From assembly GCA_016191815.1 (NCBI GenBank), contig JACPVI010000070.1:1-64000 (forward strand): a stretch of 64,000 nt of DNA, read 5' to 3'. Positions 1,383 through 63,339 of the stretch are shown piece after piece. The translations under genes and the position numbers were made by a program. Source of the DNA: Myxococcales bacterium (lineage in GTDB: Bacteria > Myxococcota > Myxococcia > Myxococcales > Myxococcaceae). The notes beneath the pieces were generated by a model. The model worked only from the letters and a program-made list of their open reading frames with translations, ran no database searches and was not told the DNA's origin. Each line of letters starts with the position of its first letter. Within the stretch, counting starts at the first letter, position 1.

Positions 1383-1683
1383 GGGCTCCCCAATTGACGA
1401 GCTGGTTTTCTCCCCGGCCGCCCGCGGCTACGCCGGCCGCGCCTTCTGGCGCGCCGCGGGCGGCCTCTTGGAAGCGACTGCACGCTGCTGACGGCCGGAG
1501 GACCTGTCGGCCAGCAACTAAAAAGAAGAAGCGCGGGACGTCGAGCGGCTGATCAGCGCCGCTCCGCTCGACGCTTTGGCCGCGAGCTACTCGAGCTCGG
1601 CCGAGCCCCTCTCTCTAGTTGCCCGACGCTGCCGCCTCGAGCTCGTCGCTCTCGGACAACAGCTGCGCTACCGTGCCGGCGCA

Positions 1684-2265: not shown

Positions 2266-2410
2266 GCGACAGCGCCGGCATCGTCGTGCTCGCGGCCCCG
2301 ATTCGAGCCGGCGTTGGCGAGAAGTACCGGCACCCTCCCGGACAATCCACGATTCGGTTGCGCCTCGGCCCTGCGCTGCTGTTGCCCGGCTCCCGGTTCG
2401 CCACAGGGGG

Positions 2411-2764
2411 ATGCGGCGGAGCGGCGCGCCTTGGCTCGCCCTCGCACTCGCCCTCCTGGGCCTTGGCCTGGGCGTCTTCGTCGATGGCGCTGCGCTGACG
2501 ACGTCCGAGGTGCGGGAGCTGGACAAAGACGGCGTGCCGCTCGTGGGCACCGAGGTGGGCGGAGTGCGGACGAGGGTGACGAAGTGGAAGCGCGGCCCGG
2601 CCGGCTTCGTGGAGCAAGTCGAAAACCCCGACGGCTTCCTCACCAAGCTGTCGCGCAACCTCCTCGGCTGGCCGGAGGAGTGCGATCCCAAGAAACCCGG
2701 CGGGGCACCGAATTCCAGGGGTTTGGGGCTACAGCTCGTCGTTCTCGGCCGAGAACAGCGGTAG
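2411..2764 (+). CDS. Small secreted/membrane protein cassette 2 (MRRSGAPWLALALALLGLGLGVF...) ending in the shared ECDPKKPGGAPNSRGL tail
   Basis: ATG at 2411 is in frame with the ORF-track entry 2174..2764. It has a hydrophobic N-terminus and the same C-terminal motif as cassette 1. Confidence 0.35.
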   Translation: MRRSGAPWLALALALLGLGLGVFVDGAALTTSEVRELDKDGVPLVGTEVGGVRTRVTKWKRGPAGFVEQVENPDGFLTKLSRNLLGWPEECDPKKPGGAPNSRGLGLQLVVLGREQR

Positions 2765-2774
2765 CGTCCCGCCA

Positions 2775-2923
2775 GTGACTCCCTCCGCGCTCAGACTCGC
2801 GAGCCTCGCGGCGCTCCTCTTGGTGGCGAGCGCCGCGCCGCCTTCGGTGCCGAGCGCGCCGAAGGAGCGCATCTGGGTGGAGCCCGAGCGCATCCTCGTC
2901 ACCGTGACGGAGCCGGCTACCAA
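2775..2923 (+). pseudogene. Cassette 3 (signal peptide + APKERIWVEPERILVTVTEPA), truncated where the convergent terC gene ends
   Basis: GTG at 2775. The MTPSALRLASLAALLLVASAAPPSVPSAPKERIWVEPERILVTVTEPA sequence is ~90% identical to cassette 1 at the nucleotide level. From ~2925 onward the reading frame is the antisense of terC. Confidence 0.4.
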
Positions 2924-3859
2924 TCAAGTCTGCCCGCGGCCCGAGGCCCAGGCCCTTCGGGTGCGAAGGCTGGCGATCACCGCGGCGCCGATCATCGCCA
3001 GGATGATCGCCACCGAGAGCATCGGCGAGACGTGGACCCACCTGGCCGCCAGCATCTTGAGCCCGGCGAAGACCAGGACGGCGGCCAGTCCGAAGTGCAG
3101 GTAGCGAAGCTCGGAGATGGTCCTGGAGAGCGCGGCGTAGAGCGCGCGGAGTCCCAGGATGGCGAAGATGTTGGAGCTGTACACCACGAACGGGTTGAGG
3201 CTGATCGAGAAGGCGGCCGGGACCGAGTCCACCGCGAAGGCGATGTCCGTCACCTCGATCGCCAAGAGGGCCACGAGCAGCGGGCTGGCATGGCGGCGTC
3301 CGTCATGGTCGATGATGAACTTGGAGCCGCGGAACTCGTGGGTGATGCGGAAGTGCCGCTTCAGCCACTCCACCAGCTTGCTCTGCTGCTGCTCGAGCGG
3401 GTGCTCACGGGCGACTCGCACCGCGACGATCAAAAGGAGGGCGCCGAAGGCGTAGGTGATCGCCTGCCAGCGCTCGATGGCCTCCACGCCGGCGAAGATG
3501 AAGAGGCCGCGGAAGACGACCGCCCCGAAGATGCCCCACTGCAGGACGCGGCGCTGGCGCTCATGGGGCACCCTGAGCCCGCGGAAGATGACCAGGAAGA
3601 CGAACAGGTTGTCGAGGCTGAGGCTCTTCTCGATGAGGTAGGCGCCCAGGTACTCCTGACCCGCCTGGCCTCCGTACGCCGCCCAGACGAAGCCGGTGAA
3701 CGCGACCCCGAGCACTACCCAAGCGACGCTCCAGGCGATCGCATTTTTGCTCGAGAGGCCACGGCCTCCCCGGTGGGCGAAGAGGTCGACGGCGAACAGC
3801 GCCACCACGGTGAGGCCGAAGGCCAGCCAGCCGGCCGGGGAGACCTCGATGCGGTCCAT
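2924..3859 (-). CDS. TerC-family integral membrane protein
   Basis: 311 aa with multiple TM helices and the TerC signature region (KSLSLDNLFVFLVIF, EVTDIAFAVDSVPAAF). Confidence 0.8.
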   Translation of the reverse strand: MDRIEVSPAGWLAFGLTVVALFAVDLFAHRGGRGLSSKNAIAWSVAWVVLGVAFTGFVWAAYGGQAGQEYLGAYLIEKSLSLDNLFVFLVIFRGLRVPHERQRRVLQWGIFGAVVFRGLFIFAGVEAIERWQAITYAFGALLLIVAVRVAREHPLEQQQSKLVEWLKRHFRITHEFRGSKFIIDHDGRRHASPLLVALLAIEVTDIAFAVDSVPAAFSISLNPFVVYSSNIFAILGLRALYAALSRTISELRYLHFGLAAVLVFAGLKMLAARWVHVSPMLSVAIILAMIGAAVIASLRTRRAWASGRGQT

Positions 3860-7303: not shown

Positions 7304-8709
7304 TGCGCTCGGGCTGGAGCTTCGAGGCGATGGACTCCTTCGTCGCCGCCACCCGAACCGCGGTGTTCGTGCGCCGGGCCGACAGCGTGCTCTTCATCCG
7401 CCCGGAGAAGACGCTCGGCCTGAACGGTACGGCCGCCCTCATCCTCGAGGCGCTCTACAACCGCGAGGGCCGCCGCTCGGCGGAAGTCTTGGGAGCGCTC
7501 GCCACCAGACTGGGCGTTGGTTTGGACCGGCTGTGCTTGGACTGCTCGGAGCTTCTCGAGGCGGTGCGGGCGTTGATGCAGGGCGATTTCACCCCGCGCC
7601 CCACGCTTCGCTTCGGCGGCTTCGAGCGGAGCCGGATCCGCTTCCCCACCCTGGCGGAGATCGCGCTCACCTACGACTGCCAGAACCGCTGCACTTTCTG
7701 CTACGCGGCGAGCCCTCACCGCTCGGCCGATCGCCCGCTGATGACCACCGCCCAAGTGGTACGGGTGATGGAGAAGATCTTCCATCAGGCGCACGTGCCC
7801 TCGCTCAGCTTCACCGGCGGCGAGGCCACGCTCCGGCCGGACTTGGCCGAGCTGGTCGGCCAGGGCAAGCGCATCGGCTTCCGGATGAACCTCATCACCA
7901 ACGGCGTGCGGGCGGGGAACGACCGCTACGCTGGCACCCTGGTGGAGGCGGGCCTGGACTCGGCCCAGGTTTCGCTCGAGGCCGCTCAGGCGGAGCTGCA
8001 CGATTCGATGGTCGGCCGGCGCGGCGCCTTCGCCCGCACCGTCCTCGCGGTGAAGAACTTCAAGGCGCTCGGGATTCACGTGCACACCAACACCACGCTC
8101 TCCTCGCGGAACGTGGAGGCGGCGCCGGAGCTGATCCGCTTCGCCGGGGGGGAGCTGGGCCTTCGGACCTTGTCGATGAACCTGCTCATCCCAACCGGCT
8201 CGGGGCTGGACGCCGCTGCCGGGCCGCTCAGCTACTCCGCGCTGGCCGAACGGCTCCCCAGCCTCGCCGAGGTGGCCAAGGAGGAGGGAGTGAAGCTGGT
8301 GTGGTACTCGCCTTTGCCCTACTGCATCCTCAACCCGGTGGTGGAGGGGTTCGGCGCCAAGGCCTGCGCCTGCATCGACGGTCTCTTGTCGGTGGATCCG
8401 GCCGGCAGCGTGCTCCCCTGCTCGTCGTTTGCCGACGGCATCGGCTCGCTGTTGGAAAGCTCGTTCGAGGAGATTTACTCCAGCAAAGCAGCGAGGTACT
8501 GGCGCGAGAAGCGGTACGTGCCTCCGCCCTGCAAGTCGTGCGGCGACGTGGACCTCTGCGCCGGGGCCTGTCCGCTCTACTGGGACGCAGCGAAGGGCTT
8601 CGAGGAGCTTCCGGTGGCGGGCGCGGCCGACCGTGTGGAGCGGCGCCGGTGGGAGCAGGGGCGCGCCGATGGGGGAAGCTTCGGTGTCCGGCTTCCGGCG
8701 GGAGGATGA
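7303..8709 (+). CDS. Radical SAM / SPASM-domain peptide/protein maturase with an N-terminal PqqD-like RRE (sactisynthase/ranthisynthase-like architecture)
   Basis: The ATG at 7303 overlaps the upstream stop. The N-terminus DSFVAATRTAVFVRRADSVLFIRPEKTLGLNGTAALILEAL looks like PqqD/RRE. The CX3CX2C motif is YDCQNRCTFCY. The C-terminal Cys cluster CACIDG...CSSF...CKSCGDVDLCAGACP fits SPASM. The long N-terminal extension in the ORF track (6229..) is Pro/Arg/Gly-rich and I reject it. Confidence 0.8.
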   Translation: MRSGWSFEAMDSFVAATRTAVFVRRADSVLFIRPEKTLGLNGTAALILEALYNREGRRSAEVLGALATRLGVGLDRLCLDCSELLEAVRALMQGDFTPRPTLRFGGFERSRIRFPTLAEIALTYDCQNRCTFCYAASPHRSADRPLMTTAQVVRVMEKIFHQAHVPSLSFTGGEATLRPDLAELVGQGKRIGFRMNLITNGVRAGNDRYAGTLVEAGLDSAQVSLEAAQAELHDSMVGRRGAFARTVLAVKNFKALGIHVHTNTTLSSRNVEAAPELIRFAGGELGLRTLSMNLLIPTGSGLDAAAGPLSYSALAERLPSLAEVAKEEGVKLVWYSPLPYCILNPVVEGFGAKACACIDGLLSVDPAGSVLPCSSFADGIGSLLESSFEEIYSSKAARYWREKRYVPPPCKSCGDVDLCAGACPLYWDAAKGFEELPVAGAADRVERRRWEQGRADGGSFGVRLPAGG

Positions 8710-48941: not shown

Positions 48942-49963
<1,022 letters not shown>

Positions 49964-49967
<4 letters not shown>

Positions 49968-51451
49968 GCACCGCCGCCGTCAAGAGCCGCGGGCGCCCGG
50001 CGGAGATCCGCCACCGGCCTTCGCGCGACTTCTTCTCCGAGCTGATGAAGGATTCGCAGTCGGGCTCGGCGGGCTTCTTGGCGGAGCGTGAGCGTTGGCT
50101 CCGCTCGGTGCAGGTGGAGGGCCGGGAGGAGCTGCTCTTCGAGTTCGAGATGATGCTCCGCGGGGTGGAGCGCTACTTCAACCTCCACAACCTGCCCATC
50201 GACGAGAAGCGCCCGGTGGTCACCCGCGACTTCCGCGAGGAGCTGAGCGACGTCCGAGACGCCATCGACTGCGCGATCCGCATCGCCCGGCAGCTTCTCG
50301 ACCCGGACAGCGACCAGAAGATGGTGTTCCGCCGCTACCTCGAGTCGCAGCTCGCCGACGACCGCGAGCGGCGGTTGCTCATCGAGGAGGAGCTGGACCA
50401 GGACTCGCCCCAGGAGAGCCTGTTCATCCTCCGGCAGTCCTTTGACTCGCTCCGGGCGGTGATCGACCACCTGCTCAGGCTTCAAGTCTGCAGCTTCAGC
50501 CTCTTCTGCGACATCGGGAACCTGGCCCTGCGCGAGGTGGTGCTCAACCGCTTCTTCCGGCCTTTCCGGCCGCTGGAGTTCCGCCTCGAGTACGACCGGA
50601 TCAAGTCGGTGCCCATCCTGGAGGCGCTCTCCGCCCTGGCGGAGGCCGACCGCCGGCCGTTCACCGTCGCCTTCCTCGCGCTCTTCAGGCTGCTCCACTA
50701 CCTCTCCTACGTGGGGGCGGAGGCCGGCGAGCCGCCCGAGCGCCGCTGCCGGGTGATCCTCGCGCTGGTGCGGAGCGAGTCGATGACGCTGGCCGGCCAC
50801 TTCAAGGTCGAGCTGGCCGCGCGCGCCGGGCAGAAGCGGCACCAGGGGGCCGCCCTCAAGGCTGCGAGGGACATCGCCCGGGAGACGGAGCGCATCCAGC
50901 GGCGGCTCTCCGAGGGGAACGACGCCTCCGGAGAGTGGATGCTCCAGGCGGCGGTCGACTTCACCACGCTCTTCCGCCGGCAAATCTGCACCCTGGCCTC
51001 GGCGCTGCAGCCCGGCCTCTCCGGAGAGGATCTCTTCCGGAAGCTGGTCAACCGGTCCGAGATGGCCCAGAGGCTCAGAGCGGACCTCTGGGTGCTGGCC
51101 GAGCTGTGCAAGGACGCCGAGGCAAATCTCCGCACGGAAAACGCCGACGCCGCCCCGGCCCTTTTCTGCCTGGCCCGCTTCATCGCCTACTTCCAGGAGG
51201 TGAGCTACCAGCTCCTCCGCTACGGCGATTACGAGGCCTTCGACCGCAGCGCCGGCCTGGTCCTCGAGATGGGAGAGCCGCCCAAGGGACCGGTCGCCCG
51301 CGCCCGGCTCGCCGAGGACCTGCGCCTGTTCTCCCAGGTGGCCGAGACCACCTTCGCCGCGGTGAACCGCCGCTCCGAGCTGGGGGGCAGGAAGTTCGAC
51401 CTCGCCGAGGCCAAGAAGCTCGCCTCCCGGTTCCGCCCCGAGCCCGCCTGA
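49964..51451 (+). CDS. Hypothetical protein (495 aa), translationally coupled to ruvB
   Basis: 4-bp overlap with ruvB. No recognisable domain. Confidence 0.5.
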
Positions 51452-51860: not shown

Positions 51861-52799
51861 ATGTCCAATTCCTCCTTCAACCAGCGCACCATCGCCGAGA
51901 CGATCAGTTGTCAGGGCGTGGGGCTGCACTCCGGTGCGCAGGTCACCATGAGGCTTCTTCCGGCGCCGGCGGGGCACGGCGTGGTCTTCGTGAGGACGGA
52001 CCTGGGGCCGCCTTTGGCGATCAAGGCGCTGGCGGAGAACGTGGTGGACACCTCGCTGGCGACCACCCTGGGCAACGGGGGGGCGAAGGTCGGCACCGTC
52101 GAGCACCTGATGGCGGCGCTTTGTGGGCTGGGCATCGACAACGTGCGCGTCGAGCTGGATGGGCCGGAGGTGCCCATCATGGACGGCAGCGCCGGCCCGT
52201 TCGCCTACCTCATCCGCACCGCGGGAATCCGCGTGCAGGACGAGCCGAAGAGCTTCTTGGTGGTGAAGAAGCCGATCACCGTGAGCGACGGGGACAAGGA
52301 GGCCACCCTCCAGCCGGCCAGCCGCTTCCGCATCGACTGCACCATCGATTTCCGCCACCCGCTCATCTCGGATCAGTCCTTCGGGCTGGAGTTCTCCGAT
52401 CGGACCTTCATCCGGGAGATCTCCCGGGCGCGGACCTTCGGCTTTTTGAGGGACGTGGAGCACCTGCGCAAGATGGGGCTGGCGATCGGCGGCTCCTTGG
52501 ACAACGCGGTGGTGGTGGACGAGTTCTCCATCCTCAACCCTGACGGGCTTCGCTTCCCCGACGAGTTCGTGCGCCACAAGGTGCTGGACGCGATGGGGGA
52601 CCTGGCGCTGTTCGGCCGGCCGGTGATCGGCCACCTCAAGGTGCTCAAGAGCGGGCATGCCCTCAACCACCGGCTGGTGCAGATGGTGCTGCAGGATTCG
52701 AGCTGCCACGCGGTGGTCCACGCCCGGAGGCGAGACGTGGAGCGGCTGGACTTGCGCTTCCCGGACCTGGCCGGAGTGCTGGAGCCGAGTGCGGCCTGA
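51861..52799 (+). CDS. lpxC: UDP-3-O-acyl-N-acetylglucosamine deacetylase LpxC
   Basis: MSNSSFNQRTIAETISCQGVGLHSGAQVTMRLLPAPAGHGVVFVRTDL...HALNHRLV match the LpxC N- and C-terminal signatures. Confidence 0.9.
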   Translation: MSNSSFNQRTIAETISCQGVGLHSGAQVTMRLLPAPAGHGVVFVRTDLGPPLAIKALAENVVDTSLATTLGNGGAKVGTVEHLMAALCGLGIDNVRVELDGPEVPIMDGSAGPFAYLIRTAGIRVQDEPKSFLVVKKPITVSDGDKEATLQPASRFRIDCTIDFRHPLISDQSFGLEFSDRTFIREISRARTFGFLRDVEHLRKMGLAIGGSLDNAVVVDEFSILNPDGLRFPDEFVRHKVLDAMGDLALFGRPVIGHLKVLKSGHALNHRLVQMVLQDSSCHAVVHARRRDVERLDLRFPDLAGVLEPSAA

Positions 52800-53015
52800 G
52801 CGCTGAGCCAAAAGAAGCATAGGGCATTCAACCCGCGTTTTTGAGGGGGAGCTCGTGAGGGAGGGGCGTGGAGGAGCAGAACGGCGCCCGCGGAGTCGCG
52901 GTCGAGTTGGTCGCGATGGCCTGGTTTCCGGCCCTCGCGCACACCTCTCCCTCACCGGCGCTGGCGGCGGGGGCGAGCGCGTGGAGGACGGCGAACTGGA
53001 GGCGGCGCGTTCGCC

Positions 53016-54365
53016 TCACAACCCCAGGGGTAGCTGCGGCGGCGAGCACGCTCTGGGCAGCGGCGGCGGTCCGGCAGGCAGGCCCAGGTGCGCCAGCACG
53101 GCGTGACACGCGGCGCGCGAGGTGACGACGGCCAGCACGCGCCGCCGCCCTCCGCAGCGGCACGTCATGATGTCCACGGCCCACGTCCGATGCAGCAGCG
53201 TTGCCCAGTCGAGCCGCGGTCGCCTGGGCAGCTCCCGCTTGGGCGCGGCGCCGAGCGGGGCGTTCCCCACCCCAGGCGGCAGCGGCGGCGGGGCCGGCTT
53301 CGGCACCACCTGCGCGCGGGCCTTCGCATTCGGCGCCAGCACGCCGTGAAACCGCAGGAGGTGCTTCCTTTCCTGAGGCAGCACCGCTCCCGCTCTGCGC
53401 AAAAGCTGCAGCGGCGTCAGCACCAGCGCCGTCGCGCCCGAGCGCAGCGGCCGCTTCAGCGCGTACTCGTACCGTCCGTCATCCCGCCGGGTGAGGCGCT
53501 CCTCGCACAGCGGCCCCCGCGCCCCGTACCGCGCCAGCCGCTCGAGCCCGTCCCTGTCGCGCGCCTGCACCGCGGTGCCCGCGTGCAGCGAGAACCCGTC
53601 CACCACCGCCTGGTGGGCACGCGGCCGCCGCGGCAGAGGCTCCACGGCCAGGGCCAGCCGCTCCTGCAGCCCATACCACTGCAGCGCCTCCATCGAGTCC
53701 TCCTCCGGCCGCTCGACCTCCTGCGGCGCCAGCACGCCCGCCGCCTCGAGCCGCCGCGTCACCCGCCTCACCACCCGCTCCAGCACCTTCGTCACCTCCT
53801 CGTCCGAGGGCGGCGGCACCGCCACGAAGGCGCAGCCCGGGCCCGCGAAGACGCCGTCCGGTACCAGCACGTGGAAGTGCGGATGCGGTTGCAGCGCCCC
53901 GCTGAAGAGCTGCAGCATCGACACCGCCCCACACTCCAGCGTCCCCATCGCCCCCTGCCGCCGCGCGCGGCGCCGCTGCCAGGCGAAAGTCGCGCGGAGC
54001 AGCTCGCGCAGGCACAGCGATAGCGATGGCCCGTCGCGCAGCAGCAGCCACCGCAGCCGCCACGGGAAGGCCAGCGTCCACTGGCGAATGGGCACCTCGG
54101 GCAGCACCGCGTCCACCAGCTGCGCCGCCGCGTCGTGCGGCATCACCGCCAACGTGGCGGTGCTGGGCTTCACCGACACCGAGCGGCTGCGCGAGCGAAT
54201 CGCCGGCAGCGACGAGGCCCGCGAGCGGCTGGTGGACGCCAGCGCCCTCAAGCGCCTCACCACCCCCGAGGAGGCCGCCGACGTGGTGGCCTTCCTCTGC
54301 TCCGAGCGCGCCTCGGCCATCACCGGCGCGGTGGTGGACGTGACCGGCGGAGCCCATCTGGGCAA
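53016..54365 (-). mobile_element. IS91-family (HUH/Y2 rolling-circle, ISCR-like) transposase gene; the N-terminal zinc-binding region appears missing or degenerate
   Basis: VPIRQWTLAFPWRLRWLL; the HUH block is QPHPHFHVLVPDGVF. The C-terminal zinc-finger tail CRCGGRRRVLAVVTSRAACHAVLAHLGLP is characteristic of IS91/ISCR transposases. The first ~70 residues are low complexity. Confidence 0.65.
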
Positions 54366-54378
54366 TCTTTGGGGCTGA
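54140..54378 (+). pseudogene. 3' fragment of a short-chain dehydrogenase/reductase (FabG-like) gene, truncated at the transposase
   Basis: The frame ends ...GITANVAVLGFTDTERL...LKRLTTPEEAADVVAFLCSERASAITGAVVDVTGGAHL, which is an SDR C-terminal consensus. No N-terminal Rossmann part is present. Confidence 0.6.
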
Positions 54379-54514
54379 CGCCGCTGGAGCCTGGACAGTC
54401 CAACTGAGGCGCGCGGGCGCCAGGCGCCGGCTGCAGGCGCTTGATTTCACGCGGCGCGCCACCCTGCGCACACGCCCGCGGAGGCTGGCGCGGCAGTTGC
54501 CTTGCCCAGGGCTG

Positions 54515-56701
54515 ATGGATCCGACGACCCCTTCACCGCGGTTTCAAGCGCCCTGGCTGCTGGGCGTAGCGGCGCTGGCCCTGGCCGCCTGCCTCGTGGA
54601 GGATGGGGGCCCCGACGGGGGCAGGCGGCGGGACGACTCCGAGGGGCTCGGCGATGCGTCCACCCTGCGGAGCTCTAGCCCATACGACGCGGGCGAAGAC
54701 GCGGGAGAAGCCGCCGTCGAGGCCTGCGACGGCTGGGACAACAACGGCAATGGCCTGGTGGACGAGGGAACCGGGGGCGAACGGTGCACCACCTCGGCCG
54801 GCGAGGAGGGCACCCTCATCTGCGTCCAGGGCGGCCTCAAGTGTGTGCGCTGCAGCCCGGGCCAGCAGAAGAATGAGCCCTGCGGCTGCGGCATCGATCG
54901 GACCGACACCTGCAATGAGACGGGCCGCTGGGTGTTCGGCTCGTGCGACGGCTGCCCCGCTTCCTACACGCCGTCCGGCTGCGACAAGGTCGGCGCGTGC
55001 ACCCCGGGCGACGTCGAGTACCGGCCCTGCGACATGTGCCCCGCCGACGGCGGAGCCTGCGGCACCCGCTGCGTAGGAGCCCGCTGGATGTGTTCCAACT
55101 CCTGCGCCTGGGTGCAGGCTGCTCCCTGCGAGGTGCTGAGCCAGCCCGAGTGCACCGCCGACCAGGTGTTCGAGGAGCCCTGCGGCGCCTGCGGCAAGCG
55201 ACAAGTCGTCTGCGACGGCTGCTTCTGGACGCGCAAGCCCTGCCGCGACCAGGGCGCCTGCGTGCCGGGACGCATTCGCGACGTGCCGTGCCTGTCCGGC
55301 GCCTGCCTCCCCGGGCACGTCGCCACCTCTACCTGCACCGAGCAATGCCAGTGGGGGGCGACCTCGGCATGCCGCGGCTGCACCCTGAGCACGCCGGCAC
55401 AGGAGACCACCGAGTACTGCGTGGCCGGACACCCGCTCTGCGGCGCGAAGTTGACGCGCACCCAGTGCGTCGGCGAACCCACCGACTCGTGCGGCCCCGG
55501 CGGCGGCCCCCTCGAGGGCCAGCTCACCACCACCACCGTCAAGGACGAGTGCCCGCTGGTCGAGTGCAACCCCGGCGACGTGGTGGACCTGGGTGCCTGC
55601 CAGTGCCCCACCTACCGGCGCAGCAAGACGTGCGGCGCCGACTGCCGCTTCCAGCTCACCGAGTGCCCCACGCCGGTGTGCGTGCTGGGTCAGCTGAGGA
55701 CCGTGGCCTGCACGCAGTACGACAACGCCTCGCGCACCGAGAAGTGCGAGTCCTGCGGCTGGGCCGCCGCCGGCGGCTGCGCGGGCAACGTGAGCGGCCT
55801 TCCCTGCCAGTGCTACCCCGGCCAGGCCCAGACGCTCTTGCGGAGCTGCGGGCCGAGCAACGGCTGCATGCGGCAGCAGGTGACTCGAACCTGCGTCGAC
55901 TGCCGCTGGGAGGAAACCGTCGGCGCCTGCAACCAGCCGCCACCCTGCACCACGGCCGACAACTCGGTGACGCAGGTCTCCTGTGGCGCCAACACCTGCG
56001 GCAAGACGTTCACTCGCACCACCACCTGCGACCTCACCACCACCTGCAGCCTGCTGGTGAGCGACGACCGCTCCAGCTGTCCGCCCTGCCAGCAGGGCCA
56101 GACGCGTCAGACGTCGTGCACCACCGGCACCGGCGCCTGCGGCACGCAGACGTCGACCTGCGACGCCACCTGCTCCTGGGGCGCCCCGTCGGCCTGCCAG
56201 GCCTCGCCGAGCTCTTGTACCCCGGGCACCACCAAGACCGAATCCTGCACCACCAGCGCCTCGCTCTACTGCGGTGTGCCAGGCAGCCGGACGCTCAAGT
56301 GCGCCGCCAACGGCTGCGGCTGGAACCCGATCACCGACTGCCTGCCCACCGACCCGAGCCGCTGCAAGAAGGGCGACTCCCAGGCGGTCGGCACCTGCTC
56401 GTGCGGCACTCCCGACGTACGCACCTGCGACTCCACCTGCCAGTGGGGCCCCTCGAGCTGCTCCCCGGCCTGCACCGCGGGGACGGTGATGTCCCAGACC
56501 TGCGTGGCCACCGACACCTGCAACGCCGCCGGCCACAAGCGCGTCAAGTGCACCGGCTGCGCCTGGGTCGACGACGGGCCCTGCGTCCCCGACGACGCCA
56601 GCCGCTGCAAGCCCGGAGACACCAAGACCGTCGTCTGCCAGGACCTCGGCACCAAGACGCTGACCTGCACGGCGAGCTGCTCCTGGCCGACGTGTCAGTG
56701 A
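54515..56701 (+). CDS. Cysteine-rich repeat lipoprotein (myxobacterial MopE-like CDGxDNxxNGxxDE motif plus ~100 Cys)
   Basis: Lipobox LALAACLVE. CDGWDNNGNGLVDE is present. Repeated C..C...C..C modules run throughout. Confidence 0.65.
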   Translation: MDPTTPSPRFQAPWLLGVAALALAACLVEDGGPDGGRRRDDSEGLGDASTLRSSSPYDAGEDAGEAAVEACDGWDNNGNGLVDEGTGGERCTTSAGEEGTLICVQGGLKCVRCSPGQQKNEPCGCGIDRTDTCNETGRWVFGSCDGCPASYTPSGCDKVGACTPGDVEYRPCDMCPADGGACGTRCVGARWMCSNSCAWVQAAPCEVLSQPECTADQVFEEPCGACGKRQVVCDGCFWTRKPCRDQGACVPGRIRDVPCLSGACLPGHVATSTCTEQCQWGATSACRGCTLSTPAQETTEYCVAGHPLCGAKLTRTQCVGEPTDSCGPGGGPLEGQLTTTTVKDECPLVECNPGDVVDLGACQCPTYRRSKTCGADCRFQLTECPTPVCVLGQLRTVACTQYDNASRTEKCESCGWAAAGGCAGNVSGLPCQCYPGQAQTLLRSCGPSNGCMRQQVTRTCVDCRWEETVGACNQPPPCTTADNSVTQVSCGANTCGKTFTRTTTCDLTTTCSLLVSDDRSSCPPCQQGQTRQTSCTTGTGACGTQTSTCDATCSWGAPSACQASPSSCTPGTTKTESCTTSASLYCGVPGSRTLKCAANGCGWNPITDCLPTDPSRCKKGDSQAVGTCSCGTPDVRTCDSTCQWGPSSCSPACTAGTVMSQTCVATDTCNAAGHKRVKCTGCAWVDDGPCVPDDASRCKPGDTKTVVCQDLGTKTLTCTASCSWPTCQ

Positions 56702-56709
56702 GGCACACG

Positions 56710-58290
56710 ATGAAGACCAGCGCCTCGGCCCTGCTGCTGCTCGCCCTCGGGTGCACCCAGGTGGAGCTCTACAAGCCGGTGGACGACGATCCCCCCATTC
56801 CGCGGGAGCGCCTCTACGCCCGCGTCTGCGGCCCGGCCGAGCGCACCCTGCCCACGCCTTACAAGATTCTCTTCGTCGTCGACACCTCGGCCTCCAACCT
56901 CATCAACGAGACTGACCCGCCGATGTACAACGGCCTCATCGACCTGGTGAACGGCGTCACCCGTCGCGAGACTTCGGTGCGCAGCGCCATCAGCGCCCAC
57001 CAGGCGAAGCCGGACGTGAGCTTCGGCATCATCACCTTCAACGACTTTCCTCAGGTGCAGACGTTCGGCTTCACGCGCGACTTGAAGGCGCTCGACGCCG
57101 CGGTCCGGAACATCGGCGCCGCCACCGGCTGGACCAACTACTCCGACACCCTCATCCGCGCCGGAGAAGTCATCACCGGCGACCTCGGGCGAGTAGACGC
57201 CTCCGAGGCCCTGCGAACGCACTACCTGGTGTTCTGGATCAGCGATGGCTACCCGACCCGCGGCATCACTCACCAGGACCCCGAGGTGCTCTCCAAGGCG
57301 CTGGGCGACTTCGTCAAGGGCATCAAGGAGGGCGCGGCGGGGCGCGCGGCCGAGGTGCGCTTCAACACCGCCTTCCTCGGCGGCGGCAAGCCGATGGGCG
57401 AGGAAGACCCGCTGGCCTGGGCGCAGGAGGCCGAGAACGCCCGGCGCCTCTTGGCGAGCATGGCCGAAGTCGGAGGAGGCTCCTTCACCAACATCGCCGC
57501 CGGCGAGCCGATCGCCTTCGACATCAACCCCGCGCCGGTGCTGCGGCGCTTCCGACTGTCCACGGTGGTGGTGGCCAACCGCAGCGTGGTGTTCGGAGAC
57601 GTGCGGCCGCGGCCCGACACCGATCAGGACGGGCTGGGGGACCTCGAGGACCCCGACCCGCGCAACGCCGACACCGACGGCGACGGGTTGCGCGACGGCG
57701 TCGAGGCGCAGTTCCCCGGAGGCGATCCGCTGGCGAAGGAGGTGCCCGGAGGGTGCGCCTCGGCGGGGCTCGACTCCGACGGCGACGCGCTGTGGGACTG
57801 CGAGGAGGCCTTCATCGGGACGGACCCGAACAACCCCGACACCGACGGCGACCTGCTGCTCGACTCGCTCGAGGTCCGGGCCCGGGCGTCTCCGTTGAAC
57901 GCCGCCAACCTCGACCTCGACGGGGACGGCCTGGGCGAGCAGGCCGAGGTGCTGGCGCAGCTCAACGCGCGCGAGCCCAACCCGCCGGACGTGGTGAAGC
58001 GCTGGGCGCGCAAGTGGCTCGTCTCACCCGACGGGGCCGCGGCCGGCGGCAGCCTGTGCTACCAGGTGGAGGTGGCGAACCTGTACATGCTGGAGACGCT
58101 GGCCGCCGCAGGCGAGCCCGCGGGCAGCAACACCCTCGAAGTCGTCGCGGCGTTCGAGCCGGACGACGGCGGCAAGCCCATCTTCCATTTCCGGGCCACC
58201 GCCGGCGGCGTGTTCCGCGGACCGAACTACGTCGAGCCCGCCTCGCGGATGTTCGAGCTGGACTCGTCCGCTTTCGGAGGCCTGCGATGA
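56710..58290 (+). CDS. Lipoprotein with a VWA domain (MIDAS DxSxS) and thrombospondin-type-3-like Ca-binding DxDxDG repeats
   Basis: Lipobox LLLALGCTQ. ILFVVDTSASN. DTDQDGLGDLEDPDPRNADTDGDGLRDGVE...DSDGDALWD...NPDTDGDLLLD. Confidence 0.7.
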   Translation: MKTSASALLLLALGCTQVELYKPVDDDPPIPRERLYARVCGPAERTLPTPYKILFVVDTSASNLINETDPPMYNGLIDLVNGVTRRETSVRSAISAHQAKPDVSFGIITFNDFPQVQTFGFTRDLKALDAAVRNIGAATGWTNYSDTLIRAGEVITGDLGRVDASEALRTHYLVFWISDGYPTRGITHQDPEVLSKALGDFVKGIKEGAAGRAAEVRFNTAFLGGGKPMGEEDPLAWAQEAENARRLLASMAEVGGGSFTNIAAGEPIAFDINPAPVLRRFRLSTVVVANRSVVFGDVRPRPDTDQDGLGDLEDPDPRNADTDGDGLRDGVEAQFPGGDPLAKEVPGGCASAGLDSDGDALWDCEEAFIGTDPNNPDTDGDLLLDSLEVRARASPLNAANLDLDGDGLGEQAEVLAQLNAREPNPPDVVKRWARKWLVSPDGAAAGGSLCYQVEVANLYMLETLAAAGEPAGSNTLEVVAAFEPDDGGKPIFHFRATAGGVFRGPNYVEPASRMFELDSSAFGGLR

Positions 58291-58784
58291 GCGGGCGCAG
58301 CGTGCTTGGGGCGGGCTTGCTGGCGCTGTGCGGCGGGTGCGGCGCGGGCAACTCGCTCGAAGGGAGCCTGAGCCAGGAGCTGGCGCTGGGTTTCGATGAC
58401 GTCGAGGTGCGCTACTCCGCCGGCGCGCTGGCGCTGTCGTACCTGCGGCTCTCCGGCCCCGCGCCGGGGACGACGTTCCAGCTGCTCGTGCGAATGGACT
58501 CGCCCGAGGCGGTGGCACCCGGAAGCGTCGACCTCGCCTCGAGGCTTTCGACCGGCGAGCCGCGGGCCGCTGCCTCGCGGGCGATGGGCGATGAGGACAG
58601 CCGCTTTCCCCCGGTGGCGGCGGGCGTCATCCGGCTCGACGCCTGGCGGGGCAAGGACGGGCTGACGCGCGGCAGCTTCGGGCTTTCCTTCGCGAACGAG
58701 GCGGCTACCCGCTACGTCGGCGCCGGCCGCTCGGTCCATGGCACCTTCGCGGTGGAAGGCTCTGCCGAGGTCGAATCGCACTGA
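58287..58784 (+). CDS. Small lipoprotein, translationally coupled (ATGA) to the VWA gene
   Basis: Lipobox LLALCGGCGAG. Confidence 0.5.
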   Translation: MSGRSVLGAGLLALCGGCGAGNSLEGSLSQELALGFDDVEVRYSAGALALSYLRLSGPAPGTTFQLLVRMDSPEAVAPGSVDLASRLSTGEPRAAASRAMGDEDSRFPPVAAGVIRLDAWRGKDGLTRGSFGLSFANEAATRYVGAGRSVHGTFAVEGSAEVESH

Positions 58785-58801
58785 GCCGCGGCCGCGGACA
58801 G

Positions 58802-59137
58802 TCACCGGCGGCCGAGCCAAAGGAAGCCGGCGGCAAAGGGCAGCCCGACCAGCGCCATGACGTAGAAGACGCCGCGCTCGCCGTGGGCGTAGACGTTCAG
58901 GAAAAGCAGCGGCCCCACCACCGTCATCAGGTCGGTCATCGTCGCCAGCACTCCGAAGACGCCGCCGTAGCTGCCGTCGGTGCCGTGCGCCTTGCCGGCG
59001 TGCTTCAGCGTCGCGGTGAAGATGGCCGAAGAGGCGCACACGTACCCGGCGTAGGGGCCCGAGCCGTCAGTTGCCGGTGCGATCCTCAAGGATGGAGATC
59101 CGCCGCTCGTGGTCCTCGACCTTCTCCTTAAGATCAA
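58802..59137 (-). pseudogene. 3' remnant of an MFS-type transporter gene (last ~2 TM helices)
   Basis: The C-terminal ...VFYVMALVGLPFAAGFLWLGRR tail is typical of MFS. No upstream N-terminal TMs. Confidence 0.4.
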
Positions 59138-59360
59138 GTCGGGTGGCCAGAAGGTCGCGCACCTGCTGGACGGCGGTCGCGACAGCTACCAGCTCGGTCG
59201 CCAGCCGGGTCTCCGACTCGAGCTGGCGTCGCTCCGCCCGGTCGAGCCGATCGTTATTGGCGTCCAGCCGCTCGTTGGTCTGCTTGACCTCGCCCTTGAG
59301 ATCCCGGATCTCGTCGCGGATCTCCCGGAGGATCTGAACGGTGATATCGGAGGGCTCCAC
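59067..59360 (-). CDS. Small coiled-coil protein (97 aa)
   Basis: Heptad-rich: EIRDEIRDLKGEVKQTNERLDANNDRLDRAERRQLESE... Confidence 0.35.
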   Translation of the reverse strand: MEPSDITVQILREIRDEIRDLKGEVKQTNERLDANNDRLDRAERRQLESETRLATELVAVATAVQQVRDLLATRLDLKEKVEDHERRISILEDRTGN

Positions 59361-59563
59361 GGGGTGCGACGTTAGTCGGCACCTCCCGGAGCGTCAAACG
59401 GCTCAGCCGTGCAAGGTGAAAGCGGCGCCGCATGCCGACCGGGTGCCAGAACGCCCTCCGTGTGCTGCGGCGCCCACGCGCCAGGTGCTGTCCGCTCCGC
59501 TCGTCGCGCCAGCGTTTTCTCTCCTGATCCGTTACTTGCTGGGAGGCGTCACCCTGACGGAGA

Positions 59564-60055
59564 TCATGTACTCAACTGCCCCAGCTCGGTCAGCTCGTAG
59601 CCGGCCGGCGGAATGGTGAACGCTTCACCGCGGCGCGCCTTGTTCCACCGCGCCTCCACCATGCGGTGCACCGAGTTGTCGCGCTCCAGCTCGCTCACCT
59701 GGCCGCGCACGCCGAGCACCATGCGGTCTGCGCTCGAGGCCGGCTCGTAGACGCCGTGCTCGTCGGCGATGAGCGTGTTCGTCCACCGGCACAGGTAGAC
59801 GAGGTGGTGCCAGTCGGCGTCGTTGCGCGAGAGGCGAGAAATCTCCAGGCTCATCACGATGCCCACCTCGCCGCGGGCGACGGCGCTCACCAGTCGCGCG
59901 AAGCCCGCCCCTGCGGGACTCCAGTTCCGCGTCGATCGCGTCCATCGCTCGGGTCGGCGATTCCGAGTGCGCTCGTAGACCTGGCGACGGTGTTCGAGGA
60001 TCTCGGCCTCTCGGTTGAAGTGTCGCTCGTCCGGGGTCACGAAGCGGATCGCCAA
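59564..60055 (-). pseudogene. N-terminal catalytic-domain fragment of a (large) serine recombinase
   Basis: GEVGIVMSLEISRLSRNDADWHHLVYLCRWTNTLIADEHGVYEPASSADRMVLGVRGQVSELE fits the resolvase core. It is truncated at 163 aa and the first ~60 aa are degenerate. Confidence 0.55.
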
Positions 60056-60119
60056 GACGCGGCTGGCCGCGCCCGTCGCCCTGGCCAGGGTGAAGAGGAT
60101 TCAGCGGCTGGGGAACGAG

Positions 60120-61346
60120 TCATCCGGCGTTCGGCGGAGGAGCCGCCTGTAGGCCGGCGATGAAGTCGAACACCCGCTGCATTTCGCCCTCGTCGTCCTT
60201 CTCCCGACCGAGCTCGAAGCCGTATTTCAGAAGCAGAAAATCGGTGTAGGCGACGGCGAAGAACTCGTTCTCATTGCGGAGCTGGTACTGCCGCCAGATC
60301 CACCGGTGTTTCTTCGCGCGCTGGAACAAGGCGGTGATGCCTTCCGCGACCGAGTCGGGCATTGAGCCGTGAGCGAGGTGCGCCAGCTCGTGGGCGAAGG
60401 TCCAGCCTTCCGGCGTCACGTCCAACAGCTCGCCGATTGAGGCCACCGCGATCCGGTCCGAGGCCAGGCCATGCAGCGCGGCGAAGGACCGATGGTCGTC
60501 ATCCGCTCGCTCGCCCGCTAGCTCCTGAAGCTCGGGCAGGTCGACCGGTCGCACGTCCATGGGAAGGATGCGCATTACCGCGCCGCGTTCGGCCAGCGCC
60601 AGAAAGAACCGCTCGAGCGGGAGCGCCGAGGCGCAAACCACCCTCCCCTCCGCGCGGGTGAGAGCCGGCCAGTCGGGGACGATTCGCTGCAACGCCTCCG
60701 GCGCATCACTCGCCGGCAGCCTGGCGACCAGCCCGAAATGGTTCTCGTGCTCGGTGGCGAGCGCGGCCCCGTAGCCGAATGCCGCGCCGAAGTGCGAGGG
60801 ACTTGCCTCACGCGCTTGCTCAAAGAGCGAAATGGCTGAAGACAGTCTCTCTCGCCTCAGCTCCGCGGTGGCGAGCTGGCAGAGCCCCTCGGCGGTCTTC
60901 CCCTCGGCAAGTAGCTTCTCGCCGAGCGCCTTCGTCTCCTCGATGCTCCCCAGCCTCAAGGTGGGCGCGATGCGAGGCGATTCGGCGGTCAGCTTGCCCG
61001 CCAGGAGCTTGAAGTTCACCGCATGCGCGATGAGCCGCCCCCGTTGCGCGTGATCATGCACCACCGCCTCTTCGCCTTCGAGCCGCGCCACGAGCTCGTC
61101 GTGCAACTGTCCTACCTCGGTGGCCTCGTCGCGGTCCCAGGCGCCTGTCCAACCACGCTTCATCTGCGCGTCGTGCCAGGCGACCGCCCGGGCCGCGAGC
61201 TCGCGCGCTTTCTCGAGCTGGTTTCCCGCGAAGTACGCCTGCGCGAGCAGGAACCAGATGCGTGGGTCCGGCTCATCGCGGAAGGGCTCTAGCACCGGCG
61301 CTGCCTCGTGCCCCTGGCCGTGCTCCAGCAAGAGCTGGGCGAGCAC
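60120..61346 (-). CDS. TPR-containing protein with an HExxH (HELAHLAH) metallopeptidase-like motif
   Basis: TPR-like helices at the N-terminus. FAHELAHLAHG near the C-terminal third. Confidence 0.45.
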   Translation of the reverse strand: MLAQLLLEHGQGHEAAPVLEPFRDEPDPRIWFLLAQAYFAGNQLEKARELAARAVAWHDAQMKRGWTGAWDRDEATEVGQLHDELVARLEGEEAVVHDHAQRGRLIAHAVNFKLLAGKLTAESPRIAPTLRLGSIEETKALGEKLLAEGKTAEGLCQLATAELRRERLSSAISLFEQAREASPSHFGAAFGYGAALATEHENHFGLVARLPASDAPEALQRIVPDWPALTRAEGRVVCASALPLERFFLALAERGAVMRILPMDVRPVDLPELQELAGERADDDHRSFAALHGLASDRIAVASIGELLDVTPEGWTFAHELAHLAHGSMPDSVAEGITALFQRAKKHRWIWRQYQLRNENEFFAVAYTDFLLLKYGFELGREKDDEGEMQRVFDFIAGLQAAPPPNAG

Positions 61347-61387
61347 CCGCGCCTCCCGCCAGCGGGAGAGGGGATCCCCAGGTCCAA

Positions 61388-61700
61388 TCAGCGGCTCTTC
61401 GGCGGAGGAGAAGCCTGCAGCGGATCGTCAGGCCATGCGTGCCTGGGACAGCGGCGGGCGAGCTCGTTCCGAATGGCGGGGTAATGCCGCGACCAGAAGC
61501 CCGCCAGATCGGTGGTGATTTGCACCGCCCGCCGGTTGGGCGCGAGCAGGTGAAGCACCAGGGGTACCCGCCCGGCGCACACCGCCGGTCCGCGTGACAG
61601 GCCGAAGAAGTCCTGCAGGCGCGACTCCACCCAGGGCGGCTTGCCCCGCTCATAGCTCACCTTCACTTGCCGGCCACCGGGGCCCCCTCCACACTCCACG
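61388..61700 (-). pseudogene. hrpB: 3' fragment of ATP-dependent helicase HrpB (C-terminal domain only)
   Basis: [50 protein letters not shown] matches the HrpB C-terminal RYPKHxWPDDP region. No helicase core upstream. Confidence 0.55.
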
Positions 61701-61916
61701 CCGCCCGCCTCTCTCGGGCATGCGTAGCCCACCGGGCTGACACCCGCGGCTTGGGGGAACGCGACGGGTGCACGACCAGATGCACTCGACGCCAAGCTGC
61801 GCCAGCCCTGCCTGGCCCACCGCGTCGAGCCAAGTGAGGTGCTCGCGGTCTTGCCGAGGCCACCGCCTCCATGGACGACGAATGACCTCCGAGACGGCTA
61901 CTTCTTAGCGTTGGGC

Positions 61917-62212
61917 TGCACTCGGGTGCGCAGGTCACCATGAGGCTTCTTCCGGCGCCGGCGGGGCACGGCGTGGTCTTCGTGAGGACGGACCTGGGGC
62001 CGCCTTTGGCGATCAAGGCGCTGGCGGAGAACGTGGTGGACACCTCGCTGGCGACCACCCTGCCGCGGGCATGCCCTCAACCACCGGCTGGTGCAGATGG
62101 TGCTGCAGGATTCGAGCTGCCACGCGGTGGTCCACGCCGGAAGGCGCGACGTGGAGCGGCTGGACTTGCGCTTCCCGGACCTGGCCGGGGTGCTCGAGCC
62201 GAGCGCGGCCTG
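61917..62212 (+). pseudogene. lpxC: Internally deleted second copy of lpxC (5' ~150 bp joined to 3' ~150 bp)
   Basis: 61917-62072 is ~99% identical to 51917-52072 and 62060-62215 is ~95% identical to 52655-52810. The junction leaves the reading frame out of phase. Confidence 0.8.
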
Positions 62213-62271
62213 AGCGCTGAGCCGGCGCGCTTTCCCTTGCGTCCCGCTAAGGGGGCCTGTATGCGGCCCCG

Positions 62272-63339
62272 ATGAAAGAGCTCCTCGGAACTGCGGCTCT
62301 CACTGCGGCCTTCGCCCTCGTCTGGGCGTGCGCCTGCAGCAAGGACAACAAGCCCGCCGGAGGAGGCGCCGTCGCGGCCCGCAGCTTCGAGCCTCCCCCC
62401 GACACGGTGGTCGGCATCTGGGGCGGCGGGAAGAAGATCACCCTCGCCGAGGTCGACCAGAAGATCGCCAACCAGCTCCAAGACATGGAGCAGAAGAAGT
62501 ACGAGCTCCGCCTCCAGGCGATCGAATCGATGGCCGTGGACGCGGTGCTGGAGGAGGAAGCCAAGAAGAAGGGAATCACCAAGGAGCAGTACTTCCAGGC
62601 CGAGGTGGACTCGAAGGTGCCCGCCCCCTCCGAGGAGGAGATGCGCAAGTTCTTCGACCAGGTCGCCCCGCAGCTCCCGCCCGGCGCCAGCTTCGAAGAG
62701 CTCAAGGACCGCATCGCCCGCTCCCTCACCGGCCCCAAGCGCGAGGCCTTGGCGAAGCAGCTCTTCGAGCAGCTCAAGGCCACCGCCGCGGTGGAGGTGA
62801 AGCTCGAACCCCCGCCCAAGCCGCGCAAGCAGGTCGAAGCCAAGGGCCCCTCCCGCGGCCCGGAGAACGCCAAGGTGACCATCGTCGAGTTCTCCGACTT
62901 CGAGTGCCCCTTCTGCTCCCGGGCCCACGACACCGTGGAGGAGGTGATGCAGGCCTACGCCGGGAAGGTGCGGCTGTTCTTCCGCCACTACCCGCTGCCC
63001 TTCCACAAGAAGGCCGGAAAGGCAGCGGAGGCCGCGAGCTGCGCGCACGAGCAGGGCCGCTTCTGGGAGTACCATGACCTGCTCTTCAAGAATCAGCAGA
63101 AGCTCGAAGTGCCGGACCTCAAGGAACACGCCAAGTCGCTCGGGCTCGACCAGGCGCGCTTCGAGCAGTGCCTCGATTCGGGCAAGAACCTCCAGACCAT
63201 CCAGGAGGACATGCAGGCGGGCCAGAAGGTCGGGGTCGACGGGACGCCGGCGTTCTTCATCAACGGAGTGATGCTCTCGGGCGCCCAGCCGCTGGAAGAG
63301 TTCAAGAAGGTGATCGACCAGGAGCTGGCCGCCCACTAG
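62272..63339 (+). CDS. DsbA-family thiol:disulfide oxidoreductase lipoprotein with an N-terminal coiled/linker region
   Basis: Lipobox LVWACACSK. The thioredoxin active site is FSDFECPFCSRAH. GVDGTPAFFING is also present. Confidence 0.8.
   Translation: MKELLGTAALTAAFALVWACACSKDNKPAGGGAVAARSFEPPPDTVVGIWGGGKKITLAEVDQKIANQLQDMEQKKYELRLQAIESMAVDAVLEEEAKKKGITKEQYFQAEVDSKVPAPSEEEMRKFFDQVAPQLPPGASFEELKDRIARSLTGPKREALAKQLFEQLKATAAVEVKLEPPPKPRKQVEAKGPSRGPENAKVTIVEFSDFECPFCSRAHDTVEEVMQAYAGKVRLFFRHYPLPFHKKAGKAAEAASCAHEQGRFWEYHDLLFKNQQKLEVPDLKEHAKSLGLDQARFEQCLDSGKNLQTIQEDMQAGQKVGVDGTPAFFINGVMLSGAQPLEEFKKVIDQELAAH

Follow-up and report, generated by a model that had tools for sequence, protein, structure and literature searches.

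Rolling-circle insertion sequences of the IS91 family carry two distinct ends, oriIS on the 3' side and terIS on the 5' side of the transposase gene tnpA, and replicate from oriIS towards terIS (PMC13181058, PMC13393415). They insert with no duplication of their target, and when termination fails, the DNA lying on the terIS side is taken along (PMC13181058, PMC13393415). The tetranucleotide adjoining oriIS is CTTG, GTTC or GTCC in the characterised family members (PMC13181058). For the related ISCR elements, the model of Toleman proposes a circular intermediate that is rescued by homologous recombination, leaving partial duplications of the 3' conserved segment (3'-CS) on the flanks (PMC7707992, PMC3575428). 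Here we describe a locus of similar architecture in a Myxococcales bacterium from groundwater. In a 64,000-nt stretch of a metagenome-assembled genome (MAG; GCA_016191815.1, contig JACPVI010000070.1, positions 1 to 64,000, hereafter the window), a truncated IS91/ISCR-like element and a mosaic of gene fragments and intact genes lie between a complete copy of lpxC and a second, degenerate one.

We found that this arrangement interrupts a gene order that is otherwise conserved among relatives, that the occupied and the unoccupied target site of the element are both present on the same contig, and that the two lpxC copies differ only at the outer edges of their shared segments. What is seen here is most likely the trace that a recombinational insertion, centred on a relic IS91/ISCR-type element, has left behind, and no active system.

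Results

A partial copy of lpxC lies behind the intact gene

A repeat search and pairwise alignment revealed that two blocks of lpxC recur downstream of the gene (Table 1; lpxC nucleotides are counted from its ATG at 51861). Nucleotides 56-210 are repeated at an offset of 9,992 nt with 2 mismatches in 155 nt, and nucleotides 791-949 at an offset of 9,414 nt with 6 mismatches in 159 nt, the second block extending 10 nt beyond the stop codon. The longest exact shared runs are 138 nt in repeat A (51933-52070) and 74 nt in repeat B (52651-52724); repeats this long and this similar cannot be due to chance. The partial duplication had already been noticed in an earlier reading of the sequence alone (hereafter the sequence-only reading), and its limits there (nt ~57-212 and ~795-950, at 61917-62212) are close to those measured here.

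The left copy is full-length, matching Pfam LpxC over 267 of 268 profile positions (4e-111) and TIGR00325 with 366 bits against a cutoff of 187. It runs on from the native upstream genes, which encode RuvB (48942-49967) and a 494-aa protein (49964-51451). The right copy, lpxC', is a pseudogene. It lacks the first 55 nt of lpxC, including the start codon, and has no promoter; its two blocks are joined by the 2-nt filler CC (62063-62064) in place of 580 internal nucleotides (corresponding to 52071-52650), the sequence across the join being ACCCTG-CC-GCGGGC, and the reading frame is broken. A frameshifted 111-aa open reading frame (ORF) that begins at lpxC Met30 can be read within 61940-62275, and its stop codon TGA overlaps the ATG of the DsbA-like gene downstream (ATGA at 62272-62275), an overlap that is probably fortuitous.

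An independent Logan assembly of SRR12113421 supports the structure between the copies. Over its whole length of 9,210 bp, its contig L120 is identical to window positions 52745-61954, so the junction of the lpxC 3' end with the element, the junction of the hrpB fragment (hrpB') with lpxC' and the whole mosaic are real in the reads. A further contig, L124, begins at window position 62159, and the two contigs together show that both 3' alleles are real. As these k=31 contigs stop where 31-mers become shared, the pairing of the repeats rests on the MAG contig.

The insert occupies a conserved intergenic site that persists behind the second copy

In about 20 loci from Myxococcaceae and Archangiaceae and in the nearest relative (L122, with 81% amino-acid identity in lpxC), the genes follow one another as ruvC-ruvA-ruvB-(494-aa gene)-lpxC-DsbA-like-PatA_N-pyrF. 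In these loci, roughly 50-200 nt separate lpxC from the start of the DsbA-like gene, and none of them holds any of the cargo genes within 10 kb of lpxC. Since lpxC directly precedes the DsbA-like gene in the relatives, the 9,098 nt that separate the two copies in the window (52810-61907) represent an insertion. Measured against the conserved ruvCAB-x-lpxC-dsbA order, the related loci thus bear out the view of the sequence-only reading that the bracketed region was deposited next to lpxC, and the comparison of lpxC neighbourhoods that it had suggested speaks for mobilisation, as the arrangement is absent from the related genomes.

Downstream, lpxC' passes into native sequence, namely the intergenic region and then the DsbA-like gene. 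An alignment with L122 confirms this, so the right copy retains the unoccupied site. The occupied site reads GAGCC/IS (the slash marking the junction) and the empty site GAGCC/GGCGC, and no bases are duplicated at the oriIS junction, while the junction on the terIS side has been lost. The empty site lies within an imperfect palindrome of 26 nt, GCGCGGCCTGAGCGCTGAGCCGGCGC, directly after the lpxC stop codon. This palindrome may act as a terminator-like hairpin, and could possibly have offered a structural target to the HUH transposase.

The element is a relic of the IS91/ISCR superfamily

The transposase belongs to the IS91/ISCR superfamily and scores 76.4 bits (E 3.7e-21) with Pfam Y2_Tnp (PF04986), for which the cutoff is 20.9. 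Its best NCBIfam model is ISCR_clade_Ia (9e-45, profile positions 87-487 of 509), and its scores lie below the NCBIfam cutoffs both for ISCR clade Ia (NF052416; 153 against 925 bits) and for the IS91 equivalog (NF033538; 38 against 125 bits). Amino-acid identity is about 34% to ISCR1 and likewise to ISVsa3, which we take to be ISCR2. To judge from its sequence, the element is a distant myxobacterial lineage of the IS91/ISCR family that was previously uncharacterised.

What is left of the gene contains no frameshift and keeps the HUH motif (HPHFHVL) as well as the RY...Y region. In a tblastn search with the full-length relative P0002 (contig L081), residues 77-450 align at 88% identity to 54137-53019, and DNA homology to L081 ends at 54139, where the SDR fragment begins. 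Codons 1-76 are absent, along with the promoter and terIS, and the CxxC...CxxC region of P0002, which belongs to the Zn-binding domain (PF14319 Zn_Tnp_IS91), has no counterpart in the window. No terIS is present upstream of the transposase, where the SDR fragment replaces everything 5' of codon 77, and a motif scan of the 64-kb window found no second end-like motif. With the Zn-binding domain, promoter and terIS gone, the element is a relic and can no longer move by itself. The IS91-family transposase with which the sequence-only reading had the region begin is thereby confirmed as to family (Y2_Tnp, ISCR-like), yet the gene lies on the minus strand, matches P0002 only from residue 77 and is itself a remnant. 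In L081, a 73-aa ORF (1482-1703) is located just 5' of the transposase gene, in a position reminiscent of orf121 in IS91.

The oriIS-type terminus lies 206 nt past the transposase stop codon and reads, on the minus strand, AAAAACGCGGGTTGAATGCCCTATGCTTCTTTT up to the very end. Homology to the 88%-related L081 reaches within about 5 nt of 52810, a CCTAT motif is found at the equivalent place in relatives of ~50% identity (L117-L119), and the DNA fold of the end region has a z-score of -2.9. For ISCR1 we located the terminus by comparing three plasmid copies, which agree as far as AAAAAGGTGGTTTATACTTCCTATACCC (the sequence is also given as TTCCTATACCC) and then diverge, 232 nt after the ISCR1 stop codon, in agreement with the published oriIS region of 232 bp (PMC6218425). 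The terminal motif of the window is colinear with that of ISCR1, and this, together with the homology to L081, identifies 52810 as an oriIS-type end. The left lpxC repeat stops exactly at this terminus. The tetranucleotide adjoining oriIS is GGCT (in tnpA sense) and thus non-canonical, where only two insertions of this family, in the window and in L081, can be compared. A scan of metagenomes with a degenerate oriIS motif returned 35 loci, of which L081 alone had a related transposase and the others were unrelated, and it did not help to define the target site. Looking up the genomic context of P0033 (Hyalangium) likewise gave no result. On a Providencia plasmid (L127, ~3133-3190), the 28-nt ISCR1 oriIS terminus AAAAAGGTGGTTTATACTTCCTATACCC is tandemly duplicated upstream of blaPER-4.

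The two lpxC copies differ only at the edges of the repeats

All 8 differences between the copies fall at the outer repeat edges: block A has two, both within its first 17 nt, and block B has six, all within its last 85 nt. The deletion is flanked by a difference-free tract of 212 nt (P about 8e-4 under uniform placement), and counting third positions alone gives a similar P value for clustering at the edges. Seven of the differences are at third codon positions (binomial P = 0.0026 against position-neutral decay), and six of the 7 altered codons are synonymous. At the edges, about 8% of all positions and about 23% of third positions differ. As far as can be read from these positions, the pattern indicates recombination between two diverged functional lpxC alleles, rather than simple decay of a fresh duplicate. 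The foreign edges would be those adjoining the insert, namely B1 beside oriIS, with its SNPs at 52725-52790, and a2 beside hrpB', which has 61912T and 61924G where the left allele, a1, has 51920G and 51932C.

The sequence-only reading had assumed that part of lpxC was co-mobilised by the element. The intact lpxC, however, abuts the oriIS end, the side that one-ended transposition leaves behind (PMC13181058). A repeat that ends exactly at the IS terminus and at the empty site, and differences that are almost all synonymous and confined to the edges, favour homologous recombination instead.

Table 1. Features of the lpxC locus and of the insert, in window coordinates.
Feature	Positions	Strand	Evidence
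Intact lpxC, left copy, 312 aa	51861..52799	+	Pfam LpxC, TIGR00325, synteny
Repeat A, left copy (lpxC nt 56-210)	51916..52070	+	155 nt, 2 mismatches to 61908-62062
Repeat B, left copy (lpxC nt 791-949)	52651..52809	+	ends exactly at IS terminus
oriIS-type end region, terminus AAAAACGCGGGTTGAATGCCCTATGCTTCTTTT at 52810	52810..53015	-	L081 homology, CCTAT motif, ISCR1 colinearity
5'-truncated HUH/Y2 transposase gene	53016..54139	-	Y2_Tnp, ISCR_clade_Ia, tblastn P0002, L081 homology
SDR oxidoreductase 3' fragment, last ~79 codons, abuts transposase	54139..54378	+	Pfam adh_short_C2 174-236/236, 1.4e-12
Cys-rich lipoprotein, 734 aa, first of three-gene module	54497..56701	+	ORF + lipobox; L121 homologue 62% aa
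VWA + bacterial TSP3-repeat lipoprotein, 526 aa	56710..58290	+	Pfam TSP3_bac, VWA_2; partial NCBIfam MtsD, CglD; L121 homologue 55% aa
Small lipoprotein, 165 aa, third of module	58287..58784	+	ORF + lipobox; L121 homologue 42% aa
MFS-transporter-like 3' fragment, weak	58802..59137	-	NCBIfam Tet(A)-type MFS, C-terminal ~310-361, E about 0.002-0.004; no Pfam match
Stretch between MFS-like and recombinase fragments	about 59140-59560		no assignment
Serine recombinase internal fragment	59564..60055	-	Pfam Resolvase 50-144/145, 1.8e-10; weak Ccr/XisF-type matches
TPR protein, apparently intact, 408 aa, HELAH (HExxH) motif	60120..61346	-	Pfam TPR_16, TPR_19
hrpB 3' fragment, C-terminal domain only	61388..61795	-	Pfam HrpB_C 1.7e-32, 47-133/133
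hrpB'-lpxC' junction stretch, unassigned, ~110 nt	61796..61907		8-nt CCGAGACG match to lpxC nt 35-42
Degenerate lpxC', right copy (A' 61908-62062, CC 62063-62064, B' 62065-62223)	61908..62223	+	frameshifted
Unoccupied target site GAGCC/GGCGC (62223/62224) in imperfect palindrome, followed by native lpxC-dsbA intergenic region	62203..62228		palindrome + L122 alignment
DsbA/thioredoxin-like lipoprotein gene, native downstream neighbour of lpxC in relatives	62272..63339	+	NCBIfam Rcas_1661-family 1.5e-37; synteny

A mosaic of gene fragments and intact genes makes up the cargo

Beyond the IS relic, the lpxC repeats enclose 7.8 kb of mosaic cargo, all of it on the terIS side (Table 1). The three lipoprotein genes occur in the same order on the Myxococcales contig L121, and the module is therefore a genuine unit that was carried as cargo. 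Its first product, the Cys-rich lipoprotein, has no match in Pfam, NCBIfam or PADLOC. On L121, a JGI contig of sample 3300045502, the regions 1-3129 and 4690-8033 hold the module and a second, more divergent Cys-rich and VWA pair in the opposite orientation, and the same sample is also the source of L081, the contig with the closest full-length relative of the IS.

Several gene assignments of the sequence-only reading, namely the SDR 3' end, the HrpB C-terminal fragment and the intact three-gene module, agree with the Pfam and NCBIfam matches and with L121. Others need adjustment. The MFS 3' end stands as a fragment by way of a weak NCBIfam match, with no match in Pfam. The serine recombinase piece, described as a 5' end, is an internal fragment, which lacks the first ~49 residues, including the catalytic-Ser region, as well as the C-terminal domains. 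The TPR/HExxH gene had been left out of the list altogether. For the first 49 residues of the ORF at 59564-60055 the tail of an IS3-type transposase was suspected; as neither Pfam nor NCBIfam supports this, we do not claim it. Between the MFS-like and recombinase fragments, the minus strand of 59140-59380 encodes a coiled-coil-like peptide (containing ILREIRDEIRDLKGEVKQTNERLDANNDRLDRAERRQLESE) with no clear start codon, which is probably another gene fragment.

At the junction of hrpB' with lpxC', the 8-mer CCGAGACG matches lpxC 2 nt out of register and with marginal significance (P about 0.018). It may represent microhomology, and we do not treat it as evidence. A search for degraded lpxC homology to the left of 61908 gave only this out-of-register match. 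Scans of the region with Rfam, for tRNAs and with PADLOC were all negative, revealing no RNA families, tRNAs or defence systems.

Other loci and other parts of the window

Several more distant Myxococcota carry an extra 3-5 kb of genes between lpxC and the DsbA-like gene (L008, 4492-8195; L020, 5983-9700; L021, 9311-14584; L023, 1597-4473), and those of L008 and L020 include a putative lipoprotein of ~740 aa. The gap between lpxC and dsbA thus appears to be a recurrently variable spot. In another Myxococcales MAG (L018, 10906-15245), DNA of 43% GC follows the 3' end of lpxC within an otherwise high-GC group; it contains two long ORFs, one of them kinase-like, and the contig ends in a fragment of an IS91-like transposase. 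Either a foreign island has settled in the same place or the contig is chimeric.

Elsewhere in the window, 12-nt tandem repeats (GCCTGCCACTCG-like, at least 8 units) occupy 7157-7288 and would, if coding, specify a Cys/His-rich repeat. Several families of direct repeats with 76-96% identity, spaced ~1.1 kb apart, lie at 1682-2917, which points to small paralogous genes arranged in tandem close to where the window begins.

Discussion

The insert is probably, though by no means securely, best explained by homologous integration, of the Campbell or the ends-in type, of a molecule that carried the 3' part of lpxC, the IS relic and the cargo, followed by a deletion of 580 bp. In such a history, an IS91/ISCR-like rolling-circle element would have entered, oriIS end first, inside the palindrome 10 nt past the lpxC stop codon of a related lineage, converting GAGCC/GGCGC into GAGCC/oriIS; the point of insertion is visible in the window. 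A mosaic would then have built up on the terIS side, the side that one-ended transposition carries, while terIS, the promoter and the first 76 transposase codons were lost; here the anatomy is observed and the order of events is our suggestion. Subsequently, a molecule in which a stretch of lpxC, beginning at nt 56 and reaching 10 nt beyond the stop codon, was followed by the IS relic and the cargo may have recombined within lpxC of the present chromosome, either as a circle that integrated in Campbell fashion or as a linear fragment by ends-in recombination. Its donor, to go by the pattern of differences, would have been a related lineage whose lpxC differed by ~8% (~23% at third positions). 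This would have left an intact hybrid lpxC on the left and, on the right, a copy with neither promoter nor start codon that leads into the native lpxC-dsbA intergenic region, and a crossover or heteroduplex tract would have homogenised the interior of both copies. Finally, the right copy lost 580 internal nucleotides, with a 2-nt filler at the join, a deletion that is evident from the sequence and would be the latest step; less homology would then be left for excising the insert. From integration within lpxC it follows that the IS terminus bounds one repeat and the empty site the other, that each copy is joined to native DNA on one side, and that the intact copy is a hybrid. In essence, this is the Toleman model for the complex class 1 integrons of ISCR1, with the orientation mirrored.

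The explanation by homologous integration has to be weighed against several others. As the source is a metagenome-assembled genome, the contig could be an assembly artefact that combines a native chromosome, in which lpxC is followed by dsbA, with a separate molecule or a second population carrying a 9,414-bp unit of B1, IS, cargo, hrpB' and deleted lpxC', be it an excised circle, a tandem array or a copy elsewhere, threaded together via the 138-nt and 74-nt runs. The k=31 Logan assembly breaks exactly at these shared runs, so the graph permits an alternative pairing, and the two forms would be integration and excision partners in the sense of Campbell. We nevertheless regard an artefact as unlikely: a 9.4-kb circle with no replication gene and with a truncated transposase would not be heritable unless it was also integrated, a functional lpxC is missing from the other alternative pairings, and the runs fit within a typical 150-nt read and fall far below the usual length of paired-end inserts, so that the MAG assembler probably had direct support. 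It also seems improbable that the duplication arose in situ, with IS and cargo inserting 3' of lpxC, a later duplication or rearrangement copying lpxC nt 56-949 to the far end, and gene conversion homogenising the interior. Gene conversion typically spares the edges of homology, which fits the 212-nt identical tract, and neither the JGI junction search nor the protein search found a donor lineage. However, the exact unoccupied target site follows the right copy, where a tandem duplication would have put a second IS in need of precise excision; third positions hold 7 of the 8 differences although one copy is a promoterless pseudogene; and in a duplicate that keeps identical runs of 138 nt and 74 nt, edges that differ at ~23% of third positions are strongly diverged. 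Two further scenarios were rejected. Tandem duplication followed by deletion would require precise removal of a second copy of IS and cargo to restore the empty site, and a laboratory allelic-exchange construct is at odds with arms of only 155 and 159 nt, an out-of-frame deletion and intervening DNA that is not vector.

According to the sequence-only reading, a single one-ended transposition of the IS91 type brought the cargo together with a piece of lpxC from a previous location to lpxC. The right lpxC' does lie on the terIS side, downstream of oriIS in the rolling-circle direction, and the 10 nt beside oriIS (GCGCTGAGCC) recur at the far end of the unit 52810-62223, which starts at oriIS. 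The tetranucleotide cleaved at terIS is 5'-CTCG in IS91 and 5'-GTTC in the three other characterised members, and in IS91 it resembles the target tetranucleotide next to oriIS (PMC13181058). Yet termination in the donor and insertion in the recipient would have had to occur at the same nucleotide, 10 nt past lpxC, a coincidence given specificity for a tetranucleotide, and GAGCC also occurs earlier, at 52783-52787, where no termination took place. A previous insertion inside lpxC at nt 55/56 would be needed as well, which is implausible for a gene that is generally essential in Gram-negative bacteria. Moreover, the identical interior with divergent edges is left unexplained, and the transposase that is present is truncated, all of which makes such a transposition decidedly improbable. 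Homologous integration itself faces a number of difficulties. The third-position bias rejects an in-situ duplication with selection on the intact copy only moderately (by our own, assumption-dependent estimate, P about 0.02-0.13), and ongoing gene conversion between in-situ duplicates can produce divergent edges, too. Among 5.8 billion proteins, where the closest lpxC has 81% identity, we found neither a donor lineage (lpxC joined to the IS with no duplication) nor an empty-site sister strain, and an exact search of JGI metagenomes for the lpxC-IS junction yielded 0 matches. The circular form of the insert is a postulate, the junction of hrpB' with lpxC nt 56, whether from circle closure or from illegitimate end joining, is unexplained beyond the marginal 8-nt microhomology, and the linkage of the two repeats depends on a single MAG contig.

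We consider it very unlikely that 52810-62223 (9,414 nt, from oriIS to the second GCGCTGAGCC) represents a functional rolling-circle unit, in which the duplicated lpxC tail, by recreating beyond the cargo the sequence beside oriIS, would serve as surrogate terminator for a transposase that an intact family member provides in trans. If true, the unit would alternate between circle and integrated state and use a fragment of an essential gene as homology landing pad, and it would constitute an ISCR-like gene-capture vehicle in Myxococcota.

Comparison with known systems

The locus is a clean natural example of a known process, and raises no new mechanism or biological question. Its value lies in the presence of occupied and empty target sites on one contig, which fix the oriIS terminus to the nucleotide for an uncharacterised myxobacterial lineage. 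For annotation, the 366-aa transposase protein listed by NCBI should be regarded as a truncated relic. The insertion has also cut off the DsbA-like gene from its likely promoter and from the gene that otherwise precedes it, lpxC, which may affect how it is expressed.

The locus resembles Campbell integration by single crossover, as with suicide plasmids that give rise to merodiploids, and ends-in or homology-facilitated recombination, in that a direct duplication of the homology brackets the insert, one copy is joined to the native upstream and the other to the native downstream DNA, and an identical tract is framed by allele-specific edges. In contrast to laboratory integration, the event is natural and the homologous segment belongs to an essential gene to which an IS relic is linked; and unlike in the textbook case, one copy later suffered an internal deletion of 580 bp, and the present arms are short (155 and 159 nt).

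With IS91, IS801 and IS1294, whose oriIS (3' of tnpA) and terIS (5' of tnpA) are distinct ends, the element shares the HUH-Y2 transposase, the lack of a visible target-site duplication at the oriIS junction and the gathering of adjacent DNA on the terIS side (PMC13181058). It differs from them by the deletion of terIS and of the N-terminal Zn-binding domain, and by GGCT beside oriIS in place of CTTG, GTTC or GTCC. The flanking lpxC duplication, moreover, is not expected from one-ended transposition.

The complex class 1 integrons associated with ISCR1 show a comparable architecture, here found on the chromosome of an environmental myxobacterium beside an essential housekeeping gene. Both combine an IS91-like or ISCR element that has no usable terIS with non-cassette cargo (PMC7707992, PMC3575428, PMC6218425), both are bracketed by a direct partial duplication of a resident segment, which is the 3'-CS (qacEdelta1-sul1) in the integrons and lpxC in the window, and the transposases are ~34% identical with colinear oriIS-type termini. 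The polarity is reversed, however: in the window oriIS adjoins lpxC and the cargo is found on the side of terIS, whereas in the ISCR1 integrons the 3'-CS is on the terIS side and the variable region on the oriIS side (L125-L127, PMC6218425). And in place of an integron with resistance genes, the groundwater Myxococcales MAG carries on its chromosome a truncated transposase with neither integron nor resistance genes.

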